From a virus (taxonomy: Duplodnaviria; Heunggongvirae; Uroviricota; Caudoviricetes), in the IMG/VR virus record IMGVR_UViG_3300050821_009413, positions 81,490-145,489 of that record: a stretch of 64,000 nucleotides of DNA; one strand, 5' to 3'. Below are positions 46,346-63,011 of the stretch, piece after piece; the first letter of the stretch is position 1, and each line of letters begins with the position of its first letter. Under the pieces are notes generated by a model, which was not told the DNA's origin, made no database searches, and worked only from the letters and a program-made list of their open reading frames with translations. Position numbers and translations under genes: made by a program.

Positions 46346-46410
46346 GTGCGCTGAGCGCATCAGCCAGTGGGCGTTGCATGATGCAACACCCACTGGGGTT
46401 GTACTCAGAA
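46346..46410. repeat. composite nested-palindrome element, copy A
   Basis: GCGCTGAGCGC-ATCAGCCAGTGGGCGTTGCA-TGA-TGCAACACCCACTGGGGTTGTACTCAG; the outer CTGAGC/GCTCAG arms flank the inner 30-bp palindrome. Confidence 0.55.
46373..46387. promoter_or_regulatory. GTTGCA-N3-TGCAAC palindrome upstream of leftward gene 46111-46311
   Basis: gttgcatgatgcaac. Confidence 0.4.
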
Positions 46411-47328
46411 CTACGCCGATCGGGCGCGGCGACGCGGAACCGCAACAGTAACCGCGGTTTCAGCTGCAGGCTTCCTGCCCTTAGCCGGGTGCTTACGCTT
46501 ACTGGAAGCCTTACCGGCGACCATTTCTGCCGTCTTCTCCAGCTTCGCCAGCAGATCGCCCACCTCTTCGGCGGCTGCGGCTTCCTCACGTGGGGTCATC
46601 GGAACGCCGGTCACTTTCGACTCGATCAGTTCCTCAACCCTCGCCGCGTAGGTGTCGACGTGCGCGTCTTCCTCGAAGGAGGCGGTCATGTCGTCCACGA
46701 TGCCGCCCAGGATCTTCACGTACTGCCTACTTGGTGTGACTTCGCGCCGTAACGACTCGAAATCGGCGTTACGCAGATCTTCTGGCCACATCAAGTTCTG
46801 CACGACCAGCACTTTGTTGCCGCGGACCGTTTCGGGCCGCAAAGCCGCTAAGTGTGTTTTGCTGCGCAGCGTATACTGGATGATCCCGGATTTGCCTTTC
46901 TCTTCCAGCACGGCCAGCAGTGTGGCGTACGCTTCCTCGGTCTGCCGGGGGCTGGGGCTGGACAGGTCAGGCTCGAGAAAGTAGCTCTTCTCTGAGAACA
47001 GAGGGTTGATGAGAGCGGTTTCAACGAAATGCTGCACGTCGAGGGTTCTGCCGCAATCCACCTGAACCTGCTCCAGCTCCTCATCTGTCAGCAGGATCGT
47101 TTCGCCGTCGCGTACCACGCCGCGGGTGGTTTCGCCTCGGCAGCTTGCTCCGCAGTCCTCGCAGATGTACGGGGCTTTGATCCGTGACTGGGTGCCGTCG
47201 TCGTGGACGTGGAAACTGTTGAATTCCACGCCCCGGTCGCCGGATGTTGCGTACATTTTGACTGGGCAGCTGACCAGTCCGAGGCTGATCGCGGTGTTCG
47301 CTATCGAACGTGTTGGTGTTGGTGCCAT
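46411..47328 (-). CDS. ku: Ku-like DNA end-binding protein
   Basis: The N-terminus NTAISLGLVSCPVKMYATSGDRGVEFNSFH is a typical bacterial Ku core, about 300 aa, with a basic Lys/Arg C-terminal tail. Confidence 0.8.
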   Translation of the reverse strand: MAPTPTRSIANTAISLGLVSCPVKMYATSGDRGVEFNSFHVHDDGTQSRIKAPYICEDCGASCRGETTRGVVRDGETILLTDEELEQVQVDCGRTLDVQHFVETALINPLFSEKSYFLEPDLSSPSPRQTEEAYATLLAVLEEKGKSGIIQYTLRSKTHLAALRPETVRGNKVLVVQNLMWPEDLRNADFESLRREVTPSRQYVKILGGIVDDMTASFEEDAHVDTYAARVEELIESKVTGVPMTPREEAAAAEEVGDLLAKLEKTAEMVAGKASSKRKHPAKGRKPAAETAVTVAVPRRRARSA

Positions 47329-47601
47329 GTGTTTTCTCCTTCCATAATACTAATTATACGCCATCTGGCTAGTATAATCAAGTCACAATATCCACGTCTA
47401 TTTCGTGCGATTCGACAGTGGTGGTGCGGCCAGCGCCCGGACTGGTTTGCAGCTGCAAATACCGCGGAAGCGGCGTGCCGCGCTCCCACTCCTCGGCCCA
47501 CTCCCACGCCGCTTCTTCGTCGGTGAACACTTCCGAACCGAACCCGTCAACCACGGGCGGTTTGTCGTCAATAACCCAGGTGACCGTCCAAACGGTGACT
47601 T

Positions 47602-48096
47602 TCATCGCAGTGTGGTCCCCGGCCCAGGCCTGACGCCGCAAGCACGCACCTTGCCGTCCGTCCCCATATGCACATGAGACGCGGACGTTACCGGCGCATG
47701 CTGGTATGTTCCCGCCGGCGCATCGCAGAAAAACACCGAAAACTGCGGCACCTGGTACGGGTTGTACCAGATGAGCGCGTCCAGCCCGGTCGGGTTCGCG
47801 ATCCAATCATGGTCGGGTGCTAGTTCGCCGATGATCCATGCGTGGACGTTTTTGCGCCGTTCACGCAGGACACGTTGCCTGCCGTTCTCGCTCACCACGA
47901 ACCTGGCGTTATACAAGGCGATGCTGTCGGCGTGCGCGATCACCTTACCCGCGTCCGGACCGTACACAGCCGTGATCGACCAACACTCAGGGGAGCTGAT
48001 CTTACGGTGCACTTTCACAAAATCCACCATTGAACGACCGCGGAAAGGCCGCACGTTCAGTGACCGCGACGTATCCACATCAGAGGTATCCATCAT
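47602..48096 (-). CDS. hypothetical protein
   Basis: 164 aa. Confidence 0.4.
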   Translation of the reverse strand: MMDTSDVDTSRSLNVRPFRGRSMVDFVKVHRKISSPECWSITAVYGPDAGKVIAHADSIALYNARFVVSENGRQRVLRERRKNVHAWIIGELAPDHDWIANPTGLDALIWYNPYQVPQFSVFFCDAPAGTYQHAPVTSASHVHMGTDGKVRACGVRPGPGTTLR

Positions 48097-48257
48097 TTCC
48101 GTTCCTTTCGTTATCCCAGCGACGCCTGCAACAGGCCGCCGCGTATTCGCATCCGTTCGAGCAGTAATCCGATCCCGGTAAGCAAACGAATATTTTGCAC
48201 ACTGCGCATTTAGGCGGTCTGGGCGGCGCTATCGGTGCCGGCTTCACGTTGTTCCTC

Positions 48258-48395
48258 TCTCTAGTGTTCCAGGATTATTCGTTGTCGTTTTTTCGGGCAC
48301 CGCTGACACTCGTCGGTGTAGCGGGTGTAGATACCAGGAAAGTCGATTTCGGTCACCCAGTCGTGCCCACGGAACAGGCACAAGAGCCTACGAAT
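48258..48395 (-). CDS. possible small Cys/His protein (45 aa)
   Basis: Hand-translated MIRRLLCLFRGHDWVTEIDFPGIYTRYTDECQRCPKKRQRIILEH, below the ORF-track cutoff and downstream of a palindrome copy. Confidence 0.25.
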
Positions 48396-48414
48396 CATCG
48401 TTATCCTTTCAAGT

Positions 48415-48486
48415 CATGCGTTCAGCTGAGCGCATCAGCCAACAGACGTTGCAAGATGCAACGCCCGCTGGAGTCATACTCAGATG
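48415..48486. repeat. composite nested-palindrome element, copy B
   Basis: CAGCTGAGCGCATCAGCCAACAGACGTTGCAAGATGCAACGCCCGCTGGAGTCATACTCAG. Confidence 0.55.
48448..48462. promoter_or_regulatory. GTTGCA-N3-TGCAAC palindrome
   Basis: gttgcaagatgcaac. Confidence 0.4.
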
Positions 48487-48698
48487 TGTTGGAGGCCCGG
48501 CGCAGGAGTTCGCTACGTTCGCGCTCACATGTCCTACAAGCGCGGTAACGGTCATTGCGCCCTTTGCTTCACTGTGCCCTTGAAAATCACTAGCGCCAGC
48601 AAGGCTGCTCGGTGAAATTTTCGCAGTATCCCCGGGAACAAAAATGAACAAACAAACCAGGGCAGTACGCTTAACGCCAGGCCTCCAAGTTCCCTTTC

Positions 48699-49037
48699 CT
48701 ATTGGTTTACAGCCGGGATGATCTGATATATGCCGCCGGCCTCTTCCCATTCGGCGGTTTCTCGTGCCGTCCGCTGTTTTTCCCGCCGTTCCTGCATGTA
48801 TACGCGTTCGGCTTCCCGGCACACATCACAATCGCACTGATATGTGGTATATCCGGTTAGCCCGTGCTTCTCCGGTGGACACTCTGTGCGTGCCCGCCAT
48901 TCCGCGATCTTAGTGTTGCGGCGTTTCTTCTGGCATTTGGATGAGCAGGTGATTGGTGGTGCGCCGGGTCGGCGTTCCACCGTGAACACGTCGTTGCAGA
49001 CCACGCACACGCGGGTCTTGGGCCACTTCCGCTTACC
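48699..49037 (-). CDS. zinc-finger protein
   Basis: The internal start MGKRKWPKTRVCVVCND...CSSKCQKKRRN...CDCDVC gives several Cys pairs. Confidence 0.4.
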   Translation of the reverse strand, partial: GKRKWPKTRVCVVCNDVFTVERRPGAPPITCSSKCQKKRRNTKIAEWRARTECPPEKHGLTGYTTYQCDCDVCREAERVYMQERREKQRTARETAEWEEAGGIYQIIPAVNQ

Positions 49038-49409
49038 CATCGTAGGCCAGCCGTGTTGCTGCCACGTCGAAAGCGTGTGTCGCCTGCCCCAGCCGGTATT
49101 CCCGGCAGTCATCGCACCAGCAGTCGAGGTCGGCCAGGTAGCCGCGTGCACAGTTAGCGTCAGCGGGCTGCATGTCGGCCAGCGGACGGCCAAAGATCCG
49201 CGCCGCACAACGGCTATCCATCACACCTATTTTCTTCCAACTCGATGAGGTATTCGACAGCGATAGCCAGGTTGGCTACGGCGGCGAAAGGGCTGCCCAG
49301 GTTCTCACGGGCGGTGGTGTGGAACTGGCGTGCCTGATGCACCAGGTACTTGTTGGTCACGCTGTCTCCGTCTTTCTTCATCGCTTCAATCCTATCTCGT
49401 CAAGTCACT

Positions 49410-49727
49410 TCAGTCGAGGCCGAGGATTCTGGCTGTCGCTAGTTTGTCCTCGGCCCGATCCGCCGCCATCAGAGTGTACTGTTCACCGTCGAAAAGCCAC
49501 GGTACGCGGCAGTCGATGCGGCTACGCCGGTCGATGGGCCTGCCGAGCACGGACTCAACCCAGTCCTTGCCGCGGCGTTCGATCACACTCAACGCCGTTT
49601 GCAGCACATAAGGATCAACGAACCGTGCCCTGGATCGGTGGCCGTGCGCCCGCAGCTCCACCAGCGCCCGTTCGGGGAGTCTGGTCCTGCCGGTGTCGGG
49701 TGCCGGTTTTTCATGCCGTCGCGGCAT
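49410..49727 (-). CDS. hypothetical protein
   Basis: 105 aa. Confidence 0.4.
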   Translation of the reverse strand: MPRRHEKPAPDTGRTRLPERALVELRAHGHRSRARFVDPYVLQTALSVIERRGKDWVESVLGRPIDRRSRIDCRVPWLFDGEQYTLMAADRAEDKLATARILGLD

Positions 49728-50142: not shown

Positions 50143-50170
50143 TTGTTGTTCCTTTCTGTTGTGTTGGTTC

Positions 50171-50245
50171 TGCGCGCTGAGCGCATCATCCAGCGGGTGT
50201 TGCAAGATGCAACACCCGCTGGGGTTGTGCTCAGATCATTCAGCG
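50171..50245. repeat. composite nested-palindrome element, copy C
   Basis: GCGCTGAGCGCATCATCCAGCGGGTGTTGCAAGATGCAACACCCGCTGGGGTTGTGCTCAG; the inner 32 bp form a perfect inverted repeat. Confidence 0.55.
50199..50213. promoter_or_regulatory. GTTGCA-N3-TGCAAC palindrome upstream of gene 49711-50142
   Basis: gttgcaagatgcaac. Confidence 0.4.
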
Positions 50246-51354
50246 GGGATGGCTTCGACCGCTAGCTGCGCGGCCCGGATCCGTTCGTCGCTTTCGTGTT
50301 TCAGTTCGGCTAGTTGCCTCGCGAGTTCCTCGACGTCGAGTTCGCCCGAGTTGTGTCGCCACTTCTCGTACTCGGCGGCGTCCTCCCGCGCCCAACGTTC
50401 GGCGTCAGGGTCGGTGGCTTCGGCTTCGAGCCGGCCTTCCCACGCGTCTCGTTCGGCCCGGTCAGGTACCCAGCACTGGCAGGTCTCGACGGTTTCGGTG
50501 CAGTCCATGCACAGTTCGCATCGGTCGCAGAATCCGCGTGAGTCGATCAGTCCCTCTTCGCACCAATCGCAAATGTTCCAGCCGCCTTCTTTCTTGTCGT
50601 CGCCGACCGCCATTTCGTCGTCGTACGGGTCGTTGCCGTCGTCCGCGGTGCCTTTGCCGGTTTTTCTGTTGCCGATAATGATCGGCCAGTCGTCATCGTC
50701 CCAGCCGCTGGCACCGTAACCGTAGCCGTACATGCCGATACCGGAGGATGCGGACCTGGAATAGCGGTAGTAGGCGCGCTTGTAGTCACCGTTTGAATGC
50801 CAAATCCCCGTTTCAGGGTCCCACTGCCCCAGCGGCTCGTTGATGATGTACGCCGAGTACTCATACTGCGGGGCGACGGTGAGGATGACCAGCTTGTTGC
50901 CGGTGCCGCAGAACTGCGTCAACGCTTTCTGCACCCCGGCCTTGTCGAGGTTTTTGAATTGGGTCGGCAGGATTTCGTCGGCGAAAACCCGCGTGTCCGA
51001 GCGATCGTCGGCCTTGGACCACGGCTGCGCGGACGGTTGGGTGAACACCCCGTTGTGCCCGACTACGGTCAGCTCGCAGTCGCCCACCACGAACGGGTGA
51101 ACGTTGTCGAGTTTGATGCTGCCGTGCGTGGCCCACCTCGAGTGGAACAACGCGGGGCCGAGCATGTTCTCTTCCCGCGCGGCCTTGAAATCCCTGATCG
51201 CTGTTTCTATCCACAGCGATTTGCCTGTGATGATTTTTGTTCCGCAGTCAGCGACGATCGCCCAGCCGTGACCGTCTGGGTTGTTTCTACCGCCGTTGGT
51301 GAGGCCTTTTTCGTCCACCGCAGTGTTCGGTGGCAGATAACTTAACATGCACAT
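50236..51354 (-). CDS. Ntn-hydrolase / class-II glutamine amidotransferase-like protein with C-terminal Cys-rich zinc module
   Basis: It starts MCMLSY with a Cys2 nucleophile. The module HGWAI...HSRWATHG...NVHPF is present. The C-terminus carries CDWCEEGLIDSRGFCDRCELCMDCTETVETCQCW. Confidence 0.65.
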   Translation of the reverse strand: MCMLSYLPPNTAVDEKGLTNGGRNNPDGHGWAIVADCGTKIITGKSLWIETAIRDFKAAREENMLGPALFHSRWATHGSIKLDNVHPFVVGDCELTVVGHNGVFTQPSAQPWSKADDRSDTRVFADEILPTQFKNLDKAGVQKALTQFCGTGNKLVILTVAPQYEYSAYIINEPLGQWDPETGIWHSNGDYKRAYYRYSRSASSGIGMYGYGYGASGWDDDDWPIIIGNRKTGKGTADDGNDPYDDEMAVGDDKKEGGWNICDWCEEGLIDSRGFCDRCELCMDCTETVETCQCWVPDRAERDAWEGRLEAEATDPDAERWAREDAAEYEKWRHNSGELDVEELARQLAELKHESDERIRAAQLAVEAIPAE

Positions 51355-51424: not shown

Positions 51425-52825
51425 TTAGCCGAGCGTTACCCAGTTCGTGGCCCCAGCGGCAGTGAGTCGCTCGCGTTCACCGTTGCCGTCCACGATGTAG
51501 TAGTAGTTGCCAGCCAAGTTGAACCGAATCTCGTCCGAACGGCGGCGGCGGGGCCGAGGCTCCGGCGGGGACCACCTGTTCAGCGGCTCCTTCTTACCGG
51601 TCAACAACTGCGGAGGCGCGAGCCGCATAATCTCGGTGTACAAGTGCTTGTAGTTACGCCGTTGCACCCAGTCAGTGAAATGCCGCCACGTCAACGCGTT
51701 GCGGCGCAACACGTCAGCGGTCGTCATGTTCTCGGTGTAGCGCACCGACGCGTCAGCGAACTCCAACGCCGCCATGAACTCCGGGTACTTAAGTGTGGCT
51801 TTGAAGAACCGCAACTCGAACGTCCGTTCGTTGTTGCAGTTCACCGCAACATAACGGGAGTCGTTGTAGCGGTCACCAACATCGGTGGCTTTGCGCTTCA
51901 ACTCACCAGACACCGGTTTGCGGAACGCCGCGTAGCGTTCCGAGGTGCGCCGCGCCAACAGTTCCAACTCCCGGGCGTGCCGGTACATGAACAGCAGCCA
52001 CAGCATTTGATGCGACTTCGACTGCTTCCCGTCGTGGATGAACGCGTTGCGGGAAACGTGGACATGCAAACCGTAATGGTCGTCCACCCGGCAACGGACA
52101 CGGCGCAGCGAGGCCAGCAGTTCCTCGAACGGGTACTGGCGGGCGAACTGCAACGTCATCGGATGCGTCACAATCTCGGCACCGGAGATGGACCCGTCTT
52201 CCTTGAGGTAGAGGTGGGTCTCGTCGGCGTCAACGGTGCGTGTTGTTTCGGCGATGATCTGGCCGCGGCGTCCGCCGACTTCCAGTTCGACGCCGAGCAG
52301 CGCTTCAGCCGGGTAGTTCCCTTTCGGTTTGAAGTGCCGCGGTCGGTAGTTCCATGCGTGGATACCATAGTTGCCTGCCGCGTAGGCGCGGTCACGCCGA
52401 CTTGAACTGTCGGCGCAAGGCCCGCACGTGGCGCAGTTGTAGGTGTCGCATTCCTCGCAGTGAGTGCATTCGTCGCGGTTGTACGCGCCGCCGCAATTGT
52501 GGCAGATCACTTCAGGGCGTCGTGGCACAGTGCGTCTCCTTTCTTCTGTTCGTAAGCGCGTTCCCAGCAGTATTGCTGCCGCGTTGGTGAGACGGTTAGG
52601 GGTACTTATGACCGCCGCAGTTTCATCTGCCAGTGCAGATGTCCAGCACGTGCATTCGATGCTTGCTTCGCCGCAGTCGTTGCAGGTGTTACAGTTGTTG
52701 CAGTAGCCTGCGGGGATAATCTCGCCCATCCCGCAGTACGCGCAGCAATTAGCATCTGCCACCGGCTCCCACGGCCAGCCCCAGATGCTTCTGCTTGAGC
52801 GCGGCGTTATCCCTATCTCTGGCAT
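51425..52825 (-). CDS. amidoligase (glutamine-synthetase/GCS2-like, Amidoligase_2-type) with N-terminal Cys-rich zinc module
   Basis: It shares HLYLKEDGSISGAEIVTHPMTLQFARQYPF...GLHVHVSRNAF...LWLLFMYRH...FELRFFKATL with two paralogs. The start was chosen at 52825 after an AAGGAG RBS. Confidence 0.6.
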   Translation of the reverse strand: MPEIGITPRSSRSIWGWPWEPVADANCCAYCGMGEIIPAGYCNNCNTCNDCGEASIECTCWTSALADETAAVISTPNRLTNAAAILLGTRLRTEERRRTVPRRPEVICHNCGGAYNRDECTHCEECDTYNCATCGPCADSSSRRDRAYAAGNYGIHAWNYRPRHFKPKGNYPAEALLGVELEVGGRRGQIIAETTRTVDADETHLYLKEDGSISGAEIVTHPMTLQFARQYPFEELLASLRRVRCRVDDHYGLHVHVSRNAFIHDGKQSKSHQMLWLLFMYRHARELELLARRTSERYAAFRKPVSGELKRKATDVGDRYNDSRYVAVNCNNERTFELRFFKATLKYPEFMAALEFADASVRYTENMTTADVLRRNALTWRHFTDWVQRRNYKHLYTEIMRLAPPQLLTGKKEPLNRWSPPEPRPRRRRSDEIRFNLAGNYYYIVDGNGERERLTAAGATNWVTLG

Positions 52826-54049: not shown

Positions 54050-54080
54050 ATAGGTGCCTCCGTTCGTTTTGTTCTAGGTG

Positions 54081-55010: not shown

Positions 55011-55142
55011 AAGCTGAACCCTCCTTCCTTTTTGTTCACCAATTGCCGCCCAAAAGGGTTTGGGCGGGGCGACGCTCGGGCGACACCATGAGCAGCACCG
55101 ACCCTTTCGGGCCGGTGCTGCCGCGTGCTGGCGCTCAGCATT

Positions 55143-55157
55143 GTTGCAAGATGCAAC
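55143..55157. promoter_or_regulatory. GTTGCA-N3-TGCAAC palindrome upstream of amidoligase 54081-55010
   Basis: gttgcaagatgcaac. Confidence 0.4.
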
Positions 55158-55159
55158 AA

Positions 55160-56271: not shown

Positions 56272-56303
56272 GGGTTCCTTTCATTTTGTTCCGGAAATAT
56301 GGC

Positions 56304-56318
56304 GTTGCATCTTGCAAC
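56304..56318. promoter_or_regulatory. GTTGCA-N3-TGCAAC palindrome 33 bp upstream of amidoligase 55160-56271
   Basis: gttgcatcttgcaac. Confidence 0.4.
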
Positions 56319-56594
56319 GCGGTGCCGCGTCCCGAGCGACACCACCGGCAGGCACCAGAGAACACCTGATGCCGCCGAGTTGTGCTCGGAAAACGGGGGT
56401 TAGCCGGCGGCCAGCAGGCCGTTATCGGACGCGTCGTCCACCATCACATCGAAGAACAGGTCATCGTCGGGATACGTCATCTCAGCCCAACCGAGGAAGG
56501 GGATGACTTCGAGGTTCTCCCGTTCAACGGCAGCGTTAATACCAACACGTGTGTTCGCCATGTTTTGTTGCCTTTCCAGTGTTTTGTCGATTCT

Positions 56595-56609
56595 GTTGCA
56601 ACATGCAAC
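56595..56609. promoter_or_regulatory. GTTGCA-N3-TGCAAC palindrome
   Basis: gttgcaacatgcaac. Confidence 0.35.
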
Positions 56610-56730
56610 ACCTGTTTCCGTTTCATGTTTGAAACAGGCTTTGTTGAAGTGGGCATATTCCCACTATCTACAATAGTAACATAGTCAAGTCCACTAGTCA
56701 ATGGTCACGATTAAATCAGGTTAAAACACC

Positions 56731-57129
56731 TCACTTTCCCGCCGCGAACTCCGCATTCAACTCAACAACCTTCTCATTAAGACGCCCCTCCATCTCAGCC
56801 AACGTCAACTCCACCCGCTCCGGAACACGATGCGGCCAAATCTCATCACGAAACTCCGCCGCCAACCGCATCCGCAAATTCAACGCATCCAAACCATCCC
56901 CAGCATCCACAGGAACCTCCTCCCACAAAAACTGGACAAGCGCCTCATCCCGGGCACGCACCGCATCCAACCCCAGCCACACCGGATTCACCCGCTCGGC
57001 AGCCCGCTCAATCGGCGACAACTCAGCCATCTCAGTCCTCCTCCCATCCGGGGATACGTTCGATCTCAGGTATGCCCATTTCCTCCCATAACGGCAGGAT
57101 CGAAGGGTTGTCGTCGCAAGCTGCCACAA
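56731..57129 (-). CDS. hypothetical protein
   Basis: 132 aa, helical. Confidence 0.4.
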   Translation of the reverse strand: MWQLATTTLRSCRYGRKWAYLRSNVSPDGRRTEMAELSPIERAAERVNPVWLGLDAVRARDEALVQFLWEEVPVDAGDGLDALNLRMRLAAEFRDEIWPHRVPERVELTLAEMEGRLNEKVVELNAEFAAGK

Positions 57130-57574
57130 TTTCGTAATGCCGCGTCAAATAGCGATATATCCGCCGCTTCACCGACACATCCGAATGAGTCAAACCATCC
57201 GGACGCATAATCGGACCGTCATACCCAACAGGCAAATACAAAGCACGAGGGATGGCCAACAATTCCGGCAACAAGTAATCATCCAACCATCCTGCACTGG
57301 TCTCATAGTGGCGCTCCATTCTAGCGGTGACAACGGCAATTACTTCGCCTGCCGCATAATGCCGACGGCAGAACTCCAACGCCTGTTCATTAGGCGGGCA
57401 ATGCCGCGACGCTGCGTGAAAAGCGTCGAAGTCTTTCACCGGTCCGCTTACGTAATGGCGGATGGACGACACATTCACTAACGACCCGTCCATATCGGCG
57501 ATCACCGCCTTCAATCGGCGCGGTTGCCGGGCCGCCTGGTACAGCTGCCGTACATCATCCAACTCTGCGCTCAT
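57032..57574 (-). CDS. HAD-superfamily hydrolase/phosphatase
   Basis: VIADMDGSL is motif I (DxDGT/S), VVTAR is motif II, and CDDNPS is a motif IV-like DD. Confidence 0.55.
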   Translation of the reverse strand: MSAELDDVRQLYQAARQPRRLKAVIADMDGSLVNVSSIRHYVSGPVKDFDAFHAASRHCPPNEQALEFCRRHYAAGEVIAVVTARMERHYETSAGWLDDYLLPELLAIPRALYLPVGYDGPIMRPDGLTHSDVSVKRRIYRYLTRHYEIVAACDDNPSILPLWEEMGIPEIERIPGWEED

Positions 57575-57680
57575 CGATCCTCCTTTCGTTTGTTCTGGTC
57601 ACCAGGGCCACATCGCCCGATCACGCCCGATCCTCGCCTAGCGTAGTAGCCCTGGTCGTTGCCGCGAGGTCGACCAGCTT

Positions 57681-57695
57681 GTTGCATCTTGCAAC
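57681..57695. promoter_or_regulatory. GTTGCA-N3-TGCAAC palindrome upstream of HAD hydrolase gene
   Basis: gttgcatcttgcaac. Confidence 0.4.
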
Positions 57696-57923
57696 GAATT
57701 CGTTTGAACACGTCAGCCATGGATCGGTGCTCTCACCACCGATCCATGAAGCCGAGTTCACCACTAGTAATTCCACCTTGCCGGTACAGGCCACGACTCT
57801 CCGGTACAGTCCGCCGCGTCTTCTAGACTCGTGTGACCCACTGCAACTCATACGGAGCGTCCGGGTAGAGCTGCTTGATAGGACGATCGCAGTAGTAACA
57901 CCTAGCCAACTGCTGCTGTTCGG

Positions 57924-58418
57924 TCACGCGATCCACCTTTCGATCCTTGTCCACTTCGAGGTGTCCCACGGCCAGTGATACACCCACGCCCGCGTACCGT
58001 TCCCGGTGATAACGATGGACCGCATGTAGGCGTCCGGGTGACCTTCGATCCGGTCAAGGACCGCGAACCCCAAATCCGCCTCACCCTCTTTCATGGTGAC
58101 GGTGTAGCCGGGAACAGTTCCGGGTTCGGTGATCACCGCGGCAGGGAACCCCAGCGTGGTGTCATACAACTGCCCGACAACCGTGTCCAGCGTGACCGCC
58201 GCGGCGAACTGTTCAAGCGAGGGCCATCGGTTCTGGCCGGGGCACAGCGTGCCGTACACAAACACATCCCGGACCTCACCGTCAGCCAGTACACGTTCCA
58301 ACTGGGCAGCGCACTCTTTGTAGACGAGGCCGGAAGGGCTACGCTCAATCAACGGGGACGCCCTTCCGCGCCATTCTGTTATCAGCTGTTCAAGGTGAAC
58401 CGCGCTTATCGCACTCAT
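57924..58418 (-). CDS. gamma-glutamylcyclotransferase-like (AIG2/GGCT family) protein
   Basis: VFVYGTLCPGQNRW matches the GGCT YGTL-x-x-G motif at the N-terminus of a beta-barrel domain of about 150 aa. Confidence 0.55.
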   Translation of the reverse strand: MSAISAVHLEQLITEWRGRASPLIERSPSGLVYKECAAQLERVLADGEVRDVFVYGTLCPGQNRWPSLEQFAAAVTLDTVVGQLYDTTLGFPAAVITEPGTVPGYTVTMKEGEADLGFAVLDRIEGHPDAYMRSIVITGNGTRAWVYHWPWDTSKWTRIERWIA

Positions 58419-58666
58419 GACTTGCGTCCCCTTTCGCCGCTGAACAGTTCCTTCGCCTTGGCGGTGTTCAGCTCTCCCATCTCGGCCATCAGGCGGAACG
58501 CCTCGGCCATCATCGCGCGTCCACGCAACGCTGCCCGAGTCTCCTTCTCGTAGTAGAAGGTGTGATCGGCCTCCAGGTTGAAGTGAAACTCGGCGCGGGC
58601 GAAGATCTCCCTGAGTTCCTCCAACTCGACGCTGGCCGACCGCTTGTCCGACTTGTCACTCATCAT
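58415..58666 (-). CDS. hypothetical protein
   Basis: 83 aa. Confidence 0.35.
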   Translation of the reverse strand: MMSDKSDKRSASVELEELREIFARAEFHFNLEADHTFYYEKETRAALRGRAMMAEAFRLMAEMGELNTAKAKELFSGERGRKS

Positions 58667-58711
58667 CGTTCACGTTCATTCTGTTCCCCTTTTTCATCGC
58701 ATTGTTGGTCT

Positions 58712-58726
58712 GTTGCATCTTGCAAC
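58712..58726. promoter_or_regulatory. GTTGCA-N3-TGCAAC palindrome upstream of 58415-58666
   Basis: gttgcatcttgcaac. Confidence 0.4.
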
Positions 58727-58879
58727 AGGGGTGCTCAAACACGCCACCGACAGCATCAGCGCTCTCACCGCTGATGCTGTCGAGTCGAGTTCAGTACCGC
58801 GGAAACTGCTCCGGCTCAGCTTCGTCCTCGCCGAAGATTTCGTACAGCAACCACTCAGGCGTCCCCTCGTCGTAGGGGT

Positions 58880-59098
58880 TCATCGCGGCTCAACCTGTGC
58901 GTTGCACTTCTGGTACGGGGTGTGCCAGTAATCGCCGCCGACCACGATGCCCCCGTGGCCATGGAAATACTGAGTGCGGTACACGTAGTCGCAGACGATG
59001 CCGTGCGGACAACGCACCTCGTTACTCATGCGGGTTTCCGCATCGTCCCGAACAGCGTCGGAACCGGCACAGTGGTCAGCAACCCTCGGCGCAACCAC
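58880..59098 (-). CDS. hypothetical small protein
   Basis: 72 aa, Cys/His-containing. Confidence 0.3.
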   Translation of the reverse strand: MVAPRVADHCAGSDAVRDDAETRMSNEVRCPHGIVCDYVYRTQYFHGHGGIVVGGDYWHTPYQKCNAQVEPR

Positions 59099-59166
59099 TC
59101 AGCCCGACGCGCCTTCAACTCCTCCAAATTCACGGTATTGAAGTTCATTCTTGTTCCTTCCGTCGT

Positions 59167-59181
59167 GTTGCATCTTGCAAC
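59167..59181. promoter_or_regulatory. GTTGCA-N3-TGCAAC palindrome upstream of 58880-59098
   Basis: gttgcatcttgcaac. Confidence 0.4.
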
Positions 59182-59279
59182 GCCCAAAGATTTTGGGCGC
59201 AGTTGTCCCATTAACTACATACTACCATGTCAAGCCTCACTAATCAAGAGGCCGGACATGAACGTCGTAACCGCAGCGA

Positions 59280-59789
59280 TTAGGGCGCGACGTGGCCCCA
59301 TCGTTTGCCGTTGAGGATGCGCGTAACCGCAGTTCTCCCGACACCGAAGCGGTCGGCAATTTCGTGCTGCAAAAGCCCGGCTCTCCGCAACTGGATCATC
59401 TCCCGCACGTCCGCCTCGGTAATTTTCGCAGCGTGATGCCTCTCTCCTTGACGACCCGGATTTCTGTTTCGCCCGCGCATATACATATCGCGGACATTGT
59501 CCGCCTGGGTCCCCAGTTCTAAATGCGCCGGATTCTGGCAAGGGGGATTATCACAACGGTGCCGAACTTTGTGCTCCCCAGGGTCACTTCCCGTCGCAAA
59601 ACGCCACGCTAACCGGTGGGCCTTTTCGCAAATCGTATTTCCATTAAAATCCTTGCCGATAAACAGCGATCCATGCCCGAAATTTTCGGTTAATCCAGTC
59701 CACGGCCAACACTCGTCTGGACCACGCTTCTCGACCCTGGTCCAGTAGCGGGCCTCAATCGTTGGACTCAAGACGGCAATCTCCCGCAC
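59280..59789 (-). CDS. HNH endonuclease (HNH_3-like) with C-terminal helix-turn-helix
   Basis: ICEKAHRLAW...HKVRHRCDNPPCQNPAHLELGTQADN is the HNH motif. The C-terminus LLQHEIADRFGVGRTAVTRIL is HTH-like. Confidence 0.6.
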   Translation of the reverse strand: MREIAVLSPTIEARYWTRVEKRGPDECWPWTGLTENFGHGSLFIGKDFNGNTICEKAHRLAWRFATGSDPGEHKVRHRCDNPPCQNPAHLELGTQADNVRDMYMRGRNRNPGRQGERHHAAKITEADVREMIQLRRAGLLQHEIADRFGVGRTAVTRILNGKRWGHVAP

Positions 59790-59791
59790 GA

Positions 59792-61000
59792 CTACACACC
59801 TTTCACGTTAAGAACTTGGCGCAGAGTCGTAACCACCGTCACCAAGTCCTTAGCGTCCTCGATAATTTGGTCAATGTCTTTGTAGCAGGCGGGGATTTCG
59901 TCGATCCACTCCGCCCCGTGCCGATACTCAATACCAACCATCGCCGCAGCGAGATCAGCCTCAGTGAACCGCTTCTTAGCCTCGGTCCTGCTGAATCTCC
60001 TCCCAGCACCATGAGGAGCACTGTAAAGGCCATCCGCGTTGCCAGTCCCCGACACCACATAAGAACGGGTCCCCATACTTCCAGGTATAACGCCCTTTTT
60101 GCCTTCGGAGGCATTGATCGCGCCTTTCCTGGTCAGCCATACCCGCTCTCCGTCTATGTGCACAGGTTCCGTATAATTGTGGTGACAGTTTATTCGCTCA
60201 ATTTCCACGCGCTGCGCCTGCACACCCAACCACTGCGCGAACACATGGATGAACCTGTCCATCATTTCATCACGGTTGAGCAACGCGAACGTCTGCGCCC
60301 AATGCAACTCGTTGATGTAGTTGTCGAACTCCGGTGTGCCCTCAACCAGGTAGGCCAGGTCACGGTTCGGCAGCGCCGGCGCTGTTGCATCTTGCAACGT
60401 CGACTGCAACGCGATCTTGATGTGCTTCTGCGCGATCTTATTACCCACACCACGGGAACCCGAATGCAGAAACAACCACACATTACCCTCGGCATCGACA
60501 CACAACTCGATGAAATGGTTACCACCACCCAACGACCCGAGCTGCTCCATCCACTTAGGCGAATGCGACAAATCGACGCCCGTATCCACCGCCAACCTCA
60601 TCAACAACTCATGCCGCTTACGAGTAAACGGAAACCGCTGGTTATCCTTATTGTAATTTCCTGGCGACAACGGGATAGCATCCTCAATAGCCTCACGCAA
60701 CGCGGGCAGAGATAAAGAACGCTCGAAATGGTTATCGGAGTACAAGTCAATTTCGCGAAACCGTGTCTTTACTGCAGACATTCCGCAGCCTATATCGGCT
60801 CCAACCGCGGCGGGTATTACTGCGCCTTTTGTTGGAATAACAGTGCCGACGGTAGAGCCTCGTCCAAAATGAACATCTGGCATTACAGCAATGTGGGGGA
60901 AGACGAATGGTAGCTGAGCTGTTTGCCTAACTTGTTCTACGGCCTCCGGCTCTATCTCTCCGGCAAAATTCTTCACATTCTGCGCTATAAAACGTGGCAT
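59792..61000 (-). CDS. rtcB: RtcB-family RNA ligase
   Basis: MPDVHFGRGSTVG...GADIGCGM...GGGNHFIEL...HSGSRG...PHGAGR are canonical RtcB metal- and GTP-binding motifs, including the His-guanylation site. Confidence 0.85.
   Translation of the reverse strand: MPRFIAQNVKNFAGEIEPEAVEQVRQTAQLPFVFPHIAVMPDVHFGRGSTVGTVIPTKGAVIPAAVGADIGCGMSAVKTRFREIDLYSDNHFERSLSLPALREAIEDAIPLSPGNYNKDNQRFPFTRKRHELLMRLAVDTGVDLSHSPKWMEQLGSLGGGNHFIELCVDAEGNVWLFLHSGSRGVGNKIAQKHIKIALQSTLQDATAPALPNRDLAYLVEGTPEFDNYINELHWAQTFALLNRDEMMDRFIHVFAQWLGVQAQRVEIERINCHHNYTEPVHIDGERVWLTRKGAINASEGKKGVIPGSMGTRSYVVSGTGNADGLYSAPHGAGRRFSRTEAKKRFTEADLAAAMVGIEYRHGAEWIDEIPACYKDIDQIIEDAKDLVTVVTTLRQVLNVKGV
60384..60398. promoter_or_regulatory. GTTGCA-N3-TGCAAC palindrome inside rtcB coding sequence
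   Basis: gttgcatcttgcaac encodes TLQDAT in RtcB. It may be a coincidental or internal site. Confidence 0.25.
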
Positions 61001-61152
61001 TGTTGGACCTCCTGGGTGAGAAGCTCGACGTTATCCACCATCGTTCCGTCGTCGTCCCATTCGGATAGTTGTTCGATCGGATACATTTTGTTCTCCTTGT
61101 TGTTGTCTGTTCGGTTCTGGTTGAGTTGAACCGGACAGTCTAGCGCGGAATC

Positions 61153-61167
61153 GTTGCATGTTGCAAC
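61153..61167. promoter_or_regulatory. GTTGCA-N3-TGCAAC palindrome
   Basis: gttgcatgttgcaac, followed by a covarying hairpin. Confidence 0.4.
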
Positions 61168-61250
61168 GTTGCGTCCTGGCGACGCGCGGCCCAGCACCGG
61201 TCACCCTCCGGGACCGGTGCTGGACTGTAGGTGTCAGGACGAGTCAGAGT
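61168..61250 (-). terminator. hairpin plus CTGTAGGTGTCAGG box at 3-prime end of gene 61244-61573, abutting the palindrome
   Basis: CAGCACCGGTC-ACCCTCCGG-GACCGGTGCTG stem-loop, then GACTGTAGGTGTCAGGAC. A homologous element at 63012-63090 has a different but still self-complementary stem. Confidence 0.4.
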
Positions 61251-61573
61251 ACCCGCAGTAACCCAGTTTCGTCACGAACCGGCTGCGGGCCGTTGTATTT
61301 ACCGTCGTCGTCGGTGTAATCCTCGAGGATCCCAAGTATCCGACTCACGCCGACGCTGGCGGTACCCGGACGGGGCGAAATCAATTTCGACGCGAGTGTG
61401 AGGACACCGCGGATGTAGCCGGCCAGCTCCTCCGTTTCGGGATCATCGGTTTTTTCGGGGCCGATCTTTTCGATGCACGGTTTGAGTAGCGCGCCTACGG
61501 TCTCGGCTAGGGAGATCTCATCGAGTGTCGCCTCGAGGACAACATTGAGAGATGTTACTGGTCGATTCATCAT
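61244..61573 (-). CDS. hypothetical protein
   Basis: 109 aa. Confidence 0.4.
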   Translation of the reverse strand: MMNRPVTSLNVVLEATLDEISLAETVGALLKPCIEKIGPEKTDDPETEELAGYIRGVLTLASKLISPRPGTASVGVSRILGILEDYTDDDGKYNGPQPVRDETGLLRVL

Positions 61574-61789
61574 GACGAGAGTCCTTCTCGGATCAGGTAT
61601 GCGAGCTTCTCAATCTCGCTGAGGATGAGGTCCGCGGCGATCGAGTACGCACACGCCTTTCCGTGATACAGCCCGGCTATGTACTCGTCGTCGGTGGATT
61701 CTTCCTTTTTCTCGCTGGAGGTCGCGAGGCGGCGTAGCGTTGTCTCGCGACGGCGCAGTGACTCCAGGGCGGCGTCGAGTCTGGTGCTC
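61570..61789 (-). CDS. hypothetical protein (short start chosen, MSTRLDAALESL)
   Basis: The longer ORF has an Arg-rich, implausible N-terminus. Confidence 0.3.
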
Positions 61790-61981
61790 ATTCGTCCCCC
61801 CAGTCCAGCGAAGCCCTGTCCACGGTGCGGACGAGTCCGAGGCGTTGCTGCCAGCGCCGTGGTAGGTGGACGCCCGCGATCGTCCACCGGATACTCCACG
61901 GCTCGTAGGTGGTTTCGGCGTCGGTGCCGTCGTCGTTGACCCACTCGCACCGTCCGGTGGCGAGGATGCGTAGTCTTTCAA

Positions 61982-62185
61982 TCAGTTGTCGCATTTTTGT
62001 TCCTCATTCTTGTCCTTCAGCCACGTTTTGATTGCGTCCTGCTGCTGCACTAGGTAGCAGCCTAGGAGCGCGCCGAACCCGAACTCTAGCCACTGGTTCG
62101 TCGTCCAGTACAGAAGACCGTAGCTGACGTAGCTGACTGTGAAGGCGACCGCTCCCAGGATGGAGAATAACCTCAGCTTCCCCAT
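61982..62185 (-). CDS. small membrane protein
   Basis: 67 aa with two TM helices. Confidence 0.35.
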   Translation of the reverse strand: MGKLRLFSILGAVAFTVSYVSYGLLYWTTNQWLEFGFGALLGCYLVQQQDAIKTWLKDKNEEQKCDN

Positions 62186-62377
62186 GTTTTACCTCCTTTA
62201 GCTTGTTGTTGTTTGGTGGGCGATTCCATGCCAGTACATGCCGTACATGGAGTCGTTGTCGGTTAGGAACCCGATGTATATGTGTTCTATCCTGCGCGTG
62301 AAACTCGGATAGAACGGCAGCGGGTGTGTTAGGACCGCTTTGGATAGGTCCGCGGTCACTATCTCGTCTGGATCCAT

Positions 62378-62617
62378 TTATCCGACTTGCTGGTAGTTCG
62401 AGCGGAGTCTGCGCATCTGTTGGGCCATTTTGAGGTCTTCGATCAGCCCGTCGAGATGCTTGTCCGCCACATAGAACTGAACTATGCCGTCTGTGAGCTT
62501 TACGTCCCAGCCGTTCACGCACACGTCTATTGCGCGTCCGGATCGTTGGATGAATGTTGTTGTCTGGCCGCCGGTGTCTACGACGGTGACTTTAATGTCT
62601 TTCATGCTTGGCATTTT
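62378..62617 (-). CDS. hypothetical small protein
   Basis: The start MPSMKD lies about 30 bp downstream of a palindrome copy. Confidence 0.35.
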   Translation of the reverse strand, partial: KMPSMKDIKVTVVDTGGQTTTFIQRSGRAIDVCVNGWDVKLTDGIVQFYVADKHLDGLIEDLKMAQQMRRLRSNYQQVG

Positions 62618-62645
62618 TGTTTCCTTTCTGTTGTTGTTTTGTTTT

Positions 62646-62660
62646 GTTGCATGTTGCAAC
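62646..62660. promoter_or_regulatory. GTTGCA-N3-TGCAAC palindrome about 30 bp upstream of 62378-62617
   Basis: gttgcatgttgcaac with an A/C-rich leader AACAAAACAAAACAACAACAGAAAGGAAACAAAAATG. Confidence 0.4.
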
Positions 62661-62661
62661 G

Positions 62662-62964
62662 TTATGCGGCGACGCCGACCAGCACCGAGTACACGCAATC
62701 CACGTACACGTTGGCCTGTAGCGGTGACAGGTTCCAGACGTTTTCAAGATTCCAGAGCAGCTGATAACGGGGCATTCCTTTGCGTTCGTCGTTTTGGATG
62801 CGCTCAGCTACGTCGAGTGCAACGCTGGAGTCGGTGATCCTGAATCCGTGGTCGATCAGGCAGGACAGGAATGATCCGTTGCCGTCAGCGTGCGCTGTAG
62901 GCACCGCGACCGTGGCGGCGGCTATGAGCGCCGCGGTTCCTGCGAGATATCGTTTCGTCAACAT
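62662..62964 (-). CDS. secreted small protein
   Basis: MLTKRYLAGTAALIAAATVAVPTAHA is a signal peptide with an AHA cleavage site. Two Cys. Confidence 0.4.
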   Translation of the reverse strand: MLTKRYLAGTAALIAAATVAVPTAHADGNGSFLSCLIDHGFRITDSSVALDVAERIQNDERKGMPRYQLLWNLENVWNLSPLQANVYVDCVYSVLVGVAA

Positions 62965-62996
62965 GATTTTGTTTTCCCTTTCGGTTGTTGTTGTTT

Positions 62997-63011
62997 GTTG
63001 CATCTTGCAAC
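62997..63011. promoter_or_regulatory. GTTGCA-N3-TGCAAC palindrome about 33 bp upstream of 62662-62964
   Basis: gttgcatcttgcaac with a leader AACAACAACAACCGAAAGGGAAAACAAAATCATG. Confidence 0.4.

Follow-up and report, generated by a model that had tools for sequence, protein, structure and literature searches.

A dyad-symmetric site, GTTGCA-N3-TGCAAC, is repeated in at least 23 exact copies at the gene boundaries of a leftward-transcribed block in an uncultured siphovirus-like phage that probably infects Mycobacterium. We tentatively regard it as a candidate docking site of a dimeric sequence-specific DNA-binding protein, a reading to which we give somewhat less than an even chance. The window, the whole stretch of 64,000 nucleotides analysed here, holds 14 exact occurrences (starts at 43947, 46373, 48448, 50199, 55143, 56304, 56595, 57681, 58712, 59167, 60384, 61153, 62646 and 62997) where 0.00 are expected. 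The stricter 17-bp pattern YGTTGCAWSWTGCAACR matches 14/14 of them, again with 0.00 expected (100 dinucleotide-preserving shuffles). It is the sole multi-copy 6-N-6 palindrome of the window; no exact copy occurs in window positions 1-43.9 kb, and isolated half-sites show no clear enrichment. Contig L125, 99.99% identical to window 55350-64000, reaches 7.1 kb further and carries 9 more exact and 3 one-mismatch copies in that extension, so that the array spans from 43.9 kb to at least 7 kb beyond the window end. The original prediction of 13 palindromes at 46-63 kb is borne out by 13 exact sites inside that span, but its count was low, as it overlooked the copy at 43947 and nine more lie past the window end. 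Of its interpretation, a highly non-random, multi-copy, dyad-symmetric site at leftward cistron boundaries is supported.

All 23 copies fit the 17-bp consensus Y-GTTGCA-WSW-TGCAAC-R. The 12 arm positions are invariant, the centre is W-S-W in every copy, and position -1 is always Y and +1 always R, with no base-pair correlation between the two flanks (c..g 7, t..a 7, c..a 7, t..g 2). The window copies and nearby promoter-like sequences are listed below, class I denoting a bare palindrome and class II a palindrome that caps a hairpin with a 15-bp stem.

43946..43962, unstranded: class I palindrome, sense centre AGA; 26 nt separate its end from the DUF932 gene start (43920), and it occupies about +23 to +37 relative to a SigA-like promoter
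43990..44018, minus strand: perfect sigma-70-type promoter TTGACA-17-TATAAT, with site 43947 downstream of it
46349..46411, minus strand: class II element, palindrome 46372-46388, sense TCA; 15-bp stem plus 6-bp basal stem; MFE -36.3 kcal/mol, z -6.4; repeat family D5; begins shortly past the Ku stop codon, next start 61 nt beyond its end
48424..48486, minus strand: class II element, palindrome 48447-48463, sense TCT; MFE -30.8 kcal/mol, z -4.2; stem fully paired only as sense-strand RNA (three G.U pairs)
50175..50237, minus strand: class II element, palindrome 50198-50214, sense TCT; perfect 15-bp stem; MFE -40.7 kcal/mol, z -8.1; 22 nt past the stop of a 372-aa gene
55142..55158, unstranded: 17-bp palindrome, sense TCT; 2 nt past the stop of a 369-aa amidoligase gene, 132 nt before the next amidoligase start
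56303..56319, unstranded: class I palindrome, sense AGA; the 369-aa amidoligase gene starts 34 nt downstream
56594..56610, unstranded: class I palindrome, sense TGT; followed at 33 nt by a 53-aa gene; on its upstream side adjoins a separate hairpin
56701-56673: promoter-like site near palindrome 56594..56610
57680..57696, unstranded: 17-bp palindrome, sense AGA; followed at 106 nt by the HAD/PNKP-phosphatase gene; shares sequence with a doubtful 76-aa ORF call
58711..58727, unstranded: class I palindrome, sense AGA; followed at 45 nt by an 83-aa gene
59166..59182, unstranded: class I palindrome, sense AGA; a 40-aa gene starts only 18 nt downstream; a GCCCAAA/TTTGGGC hairpin adjoins upstream
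60383..60399, unstranded: intragenic palindrome in rtcB, translated T-L-Q-D-A-T
61152..61168, unstranded: class I palindrome, sense ACA; within a 94-nt module (61150-61243) with a 98.9% identical second copy beyond the window end
62645..62661, unstranded: class I palindrome, sense ACA; 1 nt past a stop codon, 31 nt upstream of a 78-aa gene
62996..63012, unstranded: class I palindrome, sense AGA; followed at 32 nt by a gene for a 100-aa product with a signal-peptide-like N-terminus

Intergenic DNA makes up 15% of the array span. The 27-kb leftward gene block has 16 intergenic gaps of 100 bp or more, and sites are present in 13 of them (17 of 26 when gaps down to 40 bp are counted). From site end to the next start codon we measured 18-132 nt, mostly 18-39 nt, where 30-130 bp had been claimed. 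The A/C-rich leaders of the same account are A-rich over the 30 nt after the site (A 37%, T 13%, against a background of 22% and 19%), but they are not conserved position by position. As predicted, a single window copy (60384) lies within rtcB, in a variable loop that a 2-aa insertion makes longer than in phage RtcB homologues, and on our gene map the remaining window copies are intergenic. Metagenome gene calls overlap those at 57681 and 61153; the 70-aa call over the latter has a better start, a strong Shine-Dalgarno sequence with ATG, downstream of the site. All intragenic copies (3 exact and 2 one-mismatch) are in the only reading frame free of cysteine codons, and since only about 0.001 exact intragenic copies are expected by chance, they are taken to be kept or tolerated for the DNA or RNA motif. 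At bare sites AGA/ACA and TCT/TGT sense centres are similarly frequent and equally distant from start codons; centre types are grouped by region, and site orientation is independent of transcription direction.

A distant relative, IMGVR_UViG_3300025435_000050 (54% G+C), carries at least 5 copies of the identical palindrome, again with 12 invariant arm positions, and its homology to the window is at the protein level only (HAD/PNKP 64%, amidoligase 50%, a 99-aa protein 37%). An identical core in two phages without nucleotide similarity indicates long-term selection on the sequence. The closer relative L132 (DUF932 70% identical) has zero copies in the 21 kb covered, and its equivalent of 43990..44018 is promoter-like sequence from which the palindrome is absent. 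This absence counts against an operator.

The dyad symmetry of the site points to a dimeric sequence-specific DNA reader, and flanks that are fixed yet uncorrelated are as predicted by independent reading of two DNA half-sites. Folding energy shows no strand bias (11/23 copies favour the sense strand). We infer that a protein, probably phage-encoded, reads the sites as DNA and that its effect is repressive. The sites lie within transcription units: they fall between cistrons, follow the few SigA-like promoters and closely precede ribosome-binding sites. From there a bound protein would not initiate transcription and would act, roadblock-like, on elongating RNA polymerase or on expression nearby. 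Binding would tune or shut down the whole block jointly, like Cluster A stoperators or RK2 KorB operators, and we consider a stoperator-type block to elongation the most likely mechanism. The accessory genes of the block may plausibly form the regulon originally proposed. No binder emerged from Pfam and PHROGs searches of about 135 window and flank ORFs, which returned only Lsr2, a protein of the HNH-HTH homing-endonuclease type and a weak winged-helix protein. The two binders put forward earlier gained no support: the protein at 59280-59789 combines HNH_3 with a C-terminal HTH and is of the free-standing homing-endonuclease type, and all winged-helix and regulator matches of 27459-27770 are sub-threshold.

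Three of the copies in the window cap RNA-type hairpins of 15 bp that covary and directly follow stop codons, which makes a role at the RNA level possible. Class II numbers 7 copies altogether, from two phages and four independent lineages, and the stem is exactly 15 bp long in each. Covariation extends to all 9 outer pairs, with 99% of cells paired and 0/500 shuffles reaching this, a score that is partly by construction since the set was chosen for pairing. The sense-strand centre is T-C-W in 7/7, all four one-sided changes yield G.U on the sense strand only, and MFE lies between -31 and -41 kcal/mol, with z between -4 and -8. A plain operator does not predict the covariation, the fixed stem length, the fixed sense orientation or the sense-only G.U pairs. 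This minority probably represents mRNA-level 3'-end, termination or processing structures.

It is possible, though doubtful, that the array as a whole is an RNA signal, either a hairpin in the polycistronic mRNA that a sequence-specific endoribonuclease or RNA-binding protein would recognise, or an element immediately 5' of the ribosome-binding site that would affect stability or translation, with class II as reinforced copies marking mRNA 3' ends. The class II features argue for it, as does the location of sites in transcribed intercistronic RNA; site 43947 is itself transcribed, given the perfect promoter upstream. An RNA-end-healing phosphatase is common to both palindrome-bearing phages, and the present phage also has RtcB. 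Against this, the stem is invariant where compensatory drift would be expected while the loop varies, with AGA and UCU alike at bare sites; the Y/R flanks are constrained without pairing; and the bare core hairpin, at -6.3 kcal/mol, is no better than shuffles. Copies within genes would expose coding RNA to cleavage or folding, and a search of Rfam matched no family.

An unlikely alternative is a selfish or recombination repeat without regulatory role, spreading by duplication or insertion (REP, MITE or Rickettsia RPE-like) or serving as a short-homology cassette boundary. Many copies do sit in longer duplicated modules (the 94-nt module, the 83-nt class II family, common upstream blocks) in a paralogue-rich gene block; regional clustering of centre types, the insertion at the RtcB copy and the lack of the repeat in L132 fit as well, and two metagenome contigs identical to L012 stop about 110-130 bp short of the L012 palindrome cluster. 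The exact core shared by two dissimilar phages argues otherwise, and near-exclusive placement at gene boundaries together with the one frame of intragenic copies indicates purifying selection on placement. No RAYT- or IS200-type transposase was seen in the window, and its one IS110-like gene (19569-20579) is 24 kb away from the array. At 15-17 bp the site is also far below the length of any mobile repeat known.

Very unlikely is a centromere-like or condensation array, on which a ParB/KorB-type protein would load for partition or compaction and not for gene control. The canonical parS half-site TGTTTCAC contains GTTTCA, one base off the half-site YGTTGCA; the Cluster O repeat likewise starts with TGTT, Corndog has an annotated ParB-like nuclease-domain protein, and the sites are dense, symmetric and in part intragenic. 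However, ParA, ParB and KorB families were unmatched in every window ORF scanned, the array is limited to one transcriptional block, and coding sequence is avoided much more strongly than by Streptomyces chromosomal parS sites.

The promoter reading, with TTGCAA/TTGCAT as the -35 hexamer originally suggested or the palindrome as a phage-specific promoter of, for example, the N4 virion RNA polymerase DNA-hairpin type, is highly improbable and largely refuted in silico: the sites stand before genes, often behind hairpins that are possibly terminators, and resemble the hairpins of N4 early promoters (6-bp stem, 3-nt loop, G or C centre), but neither a -10 or -35 nor any other conserved position lies at a fixed offset outside the 17-mer on either side, the 18-39 nt to the ATG are too few for a -10, a start site and the evident Shine-Dalgarno sequence and would, with a -35 within the site, put the transcription start at or past the latter, orientation is uncoupled from transcription, and a perfect SigA-type promoter precedes site 43947. 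The window showed neither an RNA polymerase gene nor a sigma gene, and a sigma-70-type scan of 20 kb turned up just three promoter-like sites in leftward orientation, not above shuffles.

Similar repeats are already known, without explanation, from other actinobacteriophages, which upholds the likeness first proposed; the closest are the 17-bp repeat of Cluster O and the 18-bp repeat of Cluster EG. Described analogues with matching layout count for the operator reading. In RK2 (KorB/KorA operators) and phiC31 (conserved inverted repeats bound by its repressor), multi-copy palindromes in a mobile genome let one dimeric regulator coordinate many operons. The dimeric regulator is here putative; the operators of RK2 and phiC31 are located at defined promoters or close to them, whereas most of our sites have no accompanying promoter. 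The stoperators of Cluster A mycobacteriophages and Cluster CA Rhodococcus phages are 13-14 bp repressor sites in about 25-35 copies, spread across transcription units in intergenic regions and gene termini, through which a single phage protein silences the genome by blocking elongation (PMC13313380, PMC4351075). They are asymmetric and oriented with transcription (PMC13313380, PMC4351075), whereas the present site is symmetric and without orientation. They also occur genome-wide in temperate phages with an identified immunity repressor; the present sites keep to one block, and the window showed neither a repressor nor an integrase.

Cluster EG Microbacterium phages (Hyperion) carry the inverted repeat 5'-GATCAACCNNGGTTGATC in short intergenic regions 14-22 bp upstream of leftward start codons at the right genome end, and it is kept across genomes that have diverged there (PMC7302621). 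Like ours it is a short perfect inverted repeat just upstream of leftward genes; it differs in copy number (8-10 against at least 23), its 2-bp spacer, sequence and host, and no hairpin-capped subclass is described for it (PMC7302621). The Cluster O repeat of Corndog and its relatives, 5'-TGTTCGGNNNCCGAACA, exceeds 30 copies in each genome. Its density is highest in the right arm, which is transcribed leftward, and it lies mainly in short intergenic gaps, with a minority within genes and no clear orientation rule according to its authors (PMC4351075). The function of neither array has been shown experimentally (PMC4351075, PMC7302621), a point against the operator reading. Except for the half-site start YGTT, the Cluster O sequence is unrelated to ours, and Corndog is related to the present phage only through Ku and two small proteins. 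About one third of its copies are intragenic, against 3-5 of 23 here; its start-proximal sense centre is mostly AAA where ours is mixed; and within 30-69.8 kb of Corndog no site caps a longer stem (maximum extension 3 bp), as three do in our window. Yet both repeats have 17 bp, perfect invariant arms and a 3-bp variable centre, both phages encode Ku, and in our re-analysis 10/11 intergenic sites of the Corndog leftward arm lie 22-32 nt upstream of annotated starts, close to the 18-39 nt of the present phage.

The palindrome GTTGCA-N3-TGCAAC is present in 14 exact copies in the window. The 13 copies of the original prediction, from 46373 to 63011, were all recovered, a fourteenth was found at 43947, and positions 1 to 43.9 kb contain none. 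Every copy has a pyrimidine on its 5' side, a purine on its 3' side and a W-S-W centre, so the true consensus is the 17-mer Y-GTTGCA-WSW-TGCAAC-R. This pattern matches the window 14 times (versus 0.00 in 100 dinucleotide-preserving shuffles), and it is the only palindrome of the form 6-N(0-7)-6 with at least three copies there. The ENA soil-metagenome contig L125 matches window 55350-64000 at 99.99% identity and runs on for another 7.1 kb, in which there are 9 further exact copies and 3 one-mismatch copies. In this phage, 27.3 kb of leftward genes thus carry at least 23 exact copies. Most are the bare 17-mer. The centre comes in six variants and its orientation on the sense strand is mixed (8 AGA, 9 TCT). 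A 94-nt intergenic module, made up in order of a hairpin, GCGTCGCCAGGACGCAAC and the palindrome, occurs at window 61150-61243 and again about 3.3 kb away at L125 6575-6668; the two are 98.9% identical, indicating that whole intergenic modules have recently been duplicated or gene-converted.

For mapping, the L125 extension was joined to the reverse-complemented window, the leftward genes then reading forward, and the calls returned with L125 and L001 were combined with our own. Intergenic DNA makes up 15% of the 28-kb span, yet it carries 18 to 20 of the 23 sites. A site is found in 17 of 26 gaps of at least 40 bp and in 13 of 16 gaps of at least 100 bp, and one additional large gap holds a one-mismatch copy. 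Leaving out three firmly intragenic copies, the site ends 18-39 nt before the next start codon in 12 of 20 cases. The remaining sites lie 45-132 nt before the next start, except for one whose next called gene is 408 nt off; there, an uncalled Shine-Dalgarno sequence and ATG lie 25 nt downstream. The DNA following the sites is rich in A, poor in T and leads into a GAAAGGA-type Shine-Dalgarno sequence. Of the conserved A/C-rich leaders proposed at the outset, the A-richness therefore holds, while column-by-column conservation does not.

Of the three firmly intragenic exact copies, one is the already recognised copy in rtcB and two are in genes of the extension past the window. Together with two intragenic one-mismatch copies they share a single reading frame (TTG CAA GAT GCA AC), the only one without a cysteine codon, and encode L-Q-D-A-T, L-M-Q-D-A-T or L-H-L-A-T. 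The copy in rtcB falls in a variable loop, which an insertion makes two residues longer than in the RtcB proteins of phages Chris and ClubL. With about 0.001 exact intragenic copies expected by chance, these copies support selection on the nucleotide motif. Within window 59280-61000 (minus strand), rtcB is directly followed by a free-standing HNH_3 + HTH gene of the homing-endonuclease type.

The best explanation of the array, which we hold tentatively, is that the palindromes are binding sites of a dimeric DNA-binding protein that would act inside transcription units. A symmetric dimer that reads duplex DNA is favoured on several grounds. None of the twelve arm positions varies in any of the 23 copies; a site kept for pairing only should drift by compensatory change, so the invariance favours recognition as DNA. 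The variable part is the three central bases, the loop of a would-be hairpin, and among bare sites AGA/ACA and TCT/TGT are about equally frequent on the sense strand at the same distances from start codons. The flanking bases at -1 and +1 are always a pyrimidine and a purine (23 of 23), in the combinations c..g (7 copies), t..a (7), c..a (7) and t..g (2). They are uncorrelated as a pair, 8.5 c..a combinations being expected under independence, which is just what two independently read half-sites would give. These flank and centre rules argue for the reading of DNA half-sites. As RNA, the bare core would form a weak hairpin (-6.3 kcal/mol, not above shuffles), and there is no sense versus antisense bias in folding energy around the 23 sites. 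Isolated half-sites are not clearly enriched, so the unit is the complete dyad.

That the palindromes act instead as RNA-level signals seems to us rather unlikely for the array, but a subclass of the copies, at least, behaves as RNA structure. Complementarity beyond the core is bimodal: most sites extend by 0-3 bp, as by chance, whereas those at 50199, 48448 and 46373 extend by exactly 9 bp to form a 15-bp stem with a 3-nt loop. These three class II sites, in which the palindrome caps a hairpin, are members of an 83-nt repeat family, with another stem of 6 bp at the base. Their RNAs have minimum free energies of -31 to -41 kcal/mol (z-scores -4 to -8). A one-mismatch copy past the window end and three sites of a second palindrome-bearing phage, IMGVR_UViG_3300025435_000050, have this 6+9 architecture too. 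Across these seven hairpins all nine outer pairs have changed on both sides, 99% of cells are paired and 0 of 500 shuffles match, a score that is partly built in, as the set was picked for pairing and represents four independent lineages only. The centre reads T-C-W on the sense strand in 7 of 7 hairpins, and all four one-sided changes give G.U on the sense strand only, the strand evidence coming from two hairpins. At sites 50199 and 46373 the stem starts about 13-14 nt past the upstream stop codon; for site 48448 the distance to the called upstream stop is 236 nt. At least some copies thus also matter as RNA. The only Rfam 15 covariance-model matches at the gathering threshold were four tRNAs (687-1063).

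The class II hairpins are strong, yet the sense strand has no T-run after them, so they are not canonical intrinsic (Rho-independent) terminators; after bare sites the sequence is A-rich. They are more likely 3'-end stabilisers or processing sites. An operator model alone does not account for both architectures, and nor does a hairpin model alone. A more speculative proposal, to which we give a low probability, is that the palindrome is RNA punctuation: a phage-specific factor would bind or cleave the GUUGCA/UGCAAC stem and so govern the processing, stability or translation of every cistron in long early transcripts, with class II as the measured 3'-end or processing module. Such a system might be tied to the RtcB and PNKP-type RNA-repair enzymes of the same block and, if it were real, the repeats of Cluster O and Cluster EG actinobacteriophages could be an RNA code of the same kind.

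A selfish or recombination-related repeat is improbable. REP and MITE palindromes are imperfect, several times longer than 17 bp and accompanied by a cognate transposase; here the copies are mostly the bare 17-mer, and neither a RAYT nor an IS200-type gene was found in the ORFs scanned. The core does not match GTTRRRY / RYYYAAC, the consensus of integron attC sites, and no integrase turned up. Restriction sites are avoided by phages, whereas this site is enriched. A centromere-like array of the ParB type is very improbable, with no match to ParB, ParA or KorB in the ORFs scanned and a 17-bp site that differs from the 16-bp parS in its half-site.

The promoter reading, prompted by a resemblance of the half-site to a -35 hexamer, is hardly tenable and was refuted in silico, there being no -10 or -35 at a fixed offset and too little room before the ATG. 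A sigma-70/SigA-type promoter requires hexamers 16-18 bp apart and a transcript start upstream of the ribosome-binding site. When 20 non-coding copies were aligned with 45 nt on either side, no position outside -1 to +1 was conserved and no -10 or -35 was shared. A sigma-70-type scan of 20 kb returned 7 promoter-like sites, compared with 7.1 in shuffles, and none uses the palindrome as its -35. The leftward strand has five of the seven, but three of the five overlap one another immediately before the Ku gene, which leaves three distinct leftward sites. One of these, a perfect TTGACA-17-TATAAT at 44018-43990, precedes site 43947, placing the latter at about +23 to +37 of the DUF932 leader. At site 59167 only 18 nt separate the palindrome from the ATG, seven of them Shine-Dalgarno, and a -35 inside the site would put the transcript start past the ribosome-binding site. 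Site 62646 starts 1 nt after the upstream stop codon and hence lies within read-through intercistronic RNA. The operator/promoter regulon first envisaged is accordingly plausible in its operator part and fails in its promoter part.

The Pfam and PHROGs scans covered approximately 135 ORFs in the window and flank, and no convincing binder was found among them. Only three DNA-binding proteins were detected:

DNA-binding proteins detected in the scans (window coordinates)
6848-7189, minus strand, Lsr2 homologue with both dimerisation and DNA-binding domains
27459-27770, weak winged-helix candidate
59280-59789, HNH_3 + HTH protein of the homing-endonuclease type, adjoining rtcB

Lsr2 binds AT-rich DNA without a specific site. 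The other two had been named as candidate binders, a suggestion that found no support: one is a weak winged-helix match and the other of homing-endonuclease type. PDB sequence searches for DNA-binding folds were negative, and neither a cognate immunity repressor nor an integrase was found among the roughly 135 ORFs scanned. The Zn-ribbon protein at 48699-49040 was rejected as a binder because it also occurs in Corndog and in a closer relative, L132 (IMGVR_UViG_3300047160_006104), both of which are without the palindrome. Both palindrome-bearing phages encode a PNKP-type phosphatase, amidoligases, a 99-aa protein of acidic character and a small membrane protein; nothing in this shared set looks like a DNA binder.

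Among the matches listed in an IMG/VR scan with the 15-mer, one other true array was found, that of the second phage (33.8 kb, 54% G+C; loci L012 and L180; array in L012). Among its at least 5 exact copies are a bare site that precedes a start codon by 25 nt and three hairpin-capped sites, two of which differ by compensatory change (aggttgcc/ggcaacct versus aggtggcc/ggccacct). The second phage has no nucleotide similarity to the window but encodes homologous proteins (PNKP-type phosphatase 64% identity, amidoligase 50%, 99-aa protein 37%). L132 encodes a DUF932 protein 70% identical to that of the window phage, Ku and amidoligases, and has zero copies within one mismatch in the 21 kb available; its DUF932 leader has promoter-like sequence and no palindrome. 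Being common to very divergent phages and absent from L132, the site is old yet losable. Its positions are not tied to orthologous genes, as tends to be the way regulators and their sites evolve. An identical site in two DNA-dissimilar phages, missing from a closer relative, provides a phyletic pattern by which complete genomes would allow the cognate protein to be traced. L132 repeats a different 14-mer, GATTGGAACAGACA, near start codons at 3611, 7139, 7321, 8472 and 15047. Two copies abut or lie within 2 nt of an ATG, a strong SigA-like promoter precedes two copies, and the 14-mer looks like a start-associated sequence.

The palindrome is absent from the further relatives found through DUF932 (L133-L136), and the search through Ku yielded no viral locus. 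Database relatives of the 369-aa amidoligase are either identical or at most 60% identical. Contigs reached through P0015 and P0018 proved to be unrelated elements with no repeated palindrome. Scanning viral contigs with the 17-mer brought up L180 and, for the most part, a single conserved coding sequence found in 45% G+C phages. The scan of 185,579 reference genomes gave 35 single, chance-like matches in scattered taxa, which leaves a host regulon unsupported, and the scan of the metagenome collection gave 73 single matches and no array. In an uncultured Mycobacteriaceae MAG (CAIYOH010000195.1; L159, 4049-4103), an exact palindrome whose stem is extended by 5 bp has a copy with one mismatch about 40 bp upstream of it. 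The DNA around them appears to be non-coding and contains many other palindromes; the pair may be a remnant of a related mobile element. Two unrelated viral contigs of 47% and 63% G+C, with no evident relation to the window, have dense GTTGC/GCAAC-type repeats around one exact palindrome (L054 ~2480-2660 and L176 ~3630-3730), and these local arrays resemble iterons or operators.

Except for a short piece of rtcB, the window has no DNA-level relative among 50,697 GenBank phage records. For this phage the protein database lists a contig of 145 kb. The window encodes lysin A, a LysB-like cutinase, Ku (nearest relatives in Cluster J mycobacteriophages, 34% identity), DUF932, L5 gp82-like and gp74-like proteins, Lsr2, a PPE-family protein and a tRNA cluster. 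This gene content points to an uncultured phage with a Mycobacterium-type host. Identical proteins are found in several soil metagenomes. The PPE-family protein (15966-17186, plus strand; PPE domain E = 3e-42, PPE-SVP C-terminal region) adjoins genes for lysis and the cell wall; mycobacteria typically encode such proteins, so this unusual phage cargo points to the host. The tRNA cluster (684-1153, minus strand) consists of five genes, Leu-taa, Leu-caa, Leu-gag, Leu-cag and Ser-tga. A 336-aa protein at 19569-20579 (minus strand) resembles the C-terminal domain of IS110-family transposases (PDB 9mty, E = 4.7e-8) and has no Pfam match at E <= 0.01. Three amidoligase paralogues (51425-52825, 54081-55010 and 55160-56269) share blocks of 150-180 nt at 61-80% identity. 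They are accompanied on the same minus strand by two related genes, 50236-51354 and the GATase-like 53126-54049. A GGACT cyclotransferase is encoded at 57924-58418. A large stress and metabolism block occupies 24258-39856, with the palindrome in none of its intergenic gaps:

Genes of the stress and metabolism block (window coordinates)
24258-25064, minus strand, metallophosphatase
25624-26082, minus strand, Macro domain protein
27709-29295, minus strand, NAMPT
29378-29983, minus strand, TerD
31257-31961, minus strand, vWA-TerF
32053-33393, minus strand, TelA
33899-34987, minus strand, TerC/DUF475
36723-37652, minus strand, SPFH protein
37912-38769, minus strand, phosphoribosyltransferase
38766-39113, minus strand, PTH2
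39437-39856, minus strand, ion-channel fragment

Stoperators are the best-understood working analogue of such an array. In Clusters A and CA they are asymmetric and oriented (PMC13313380). The site described here is a perfect palindrome with mixed centre orientation, not an asymmetric 13-14 bp sequence in one orientation, and the array thus falls outside the stoperator family. The closest likeness is to the short repeats in the right arms of Cluster O and Cluster EG actinobacteriophages. The Cluster O repeat is 17 bp long, with invariant 7-bp arms and a 3-bp centre. Corndog has 34 copies, which are most crowded in the leftward right arm and of which about one third lie inside genes; the study that described the repeat predicted a dimeric DNA-binding protein (PMC4351075). 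In Cluster EG Microbacterium phages, 8-10 copies of an 18-bp repeat lie 14-22 bp upstream of leftward right-end gene starts (PMC7302621). In our re-analysis of Corndog (AY129335, 30000-69777), 10 of 11 intergenic leftward-arm sites precede an annotated start by 22-32 nt, a layout shared with the bare sites of the window phage. On the sense strand, AAA occurs in 8 of 10 start-proximal intergenic 17-mers of Corndog, mostly with CACCC next, and TTT in none. The original Cluster O paper saw little evidence of orientation (PMC4351075); our counts suggest that the start-proximal subset follows an orientation rule.

The array of the window phage shares with both clusters perfect 6-8-bp arms around a variable 2-3-bp centre, 8 to more than 30 copies in a leftward non-structural gene block, and a preference for short intergenic gaps shortly before start codons, at roughly 14-32 nt in the described repeats and mostly 18-39 nt here. 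It differs in sequence from the described repeats, and beyond the short piece of rtcB the window resembles no GenBank phage at the DNA level, so the phage is not a Cluster O or EG phage; the Corndog right arm shares only Ku and two small proteins with it. Together with a future binder, the 17-mer could become a compact orthogonal operator-repressor pair for mycobacterial genetics. The palindrome is a new sequence within an already described, mechanistically unexplained kind. Dense, start-proximal, short perfect palindromes are now seen in three unrelated actinobacteriophage lineages (Cluster O, Cluster EG and the window phage), and this recurrent layout suggests what may be a general way to control small accessory-gene blocks without per-gene promoters.
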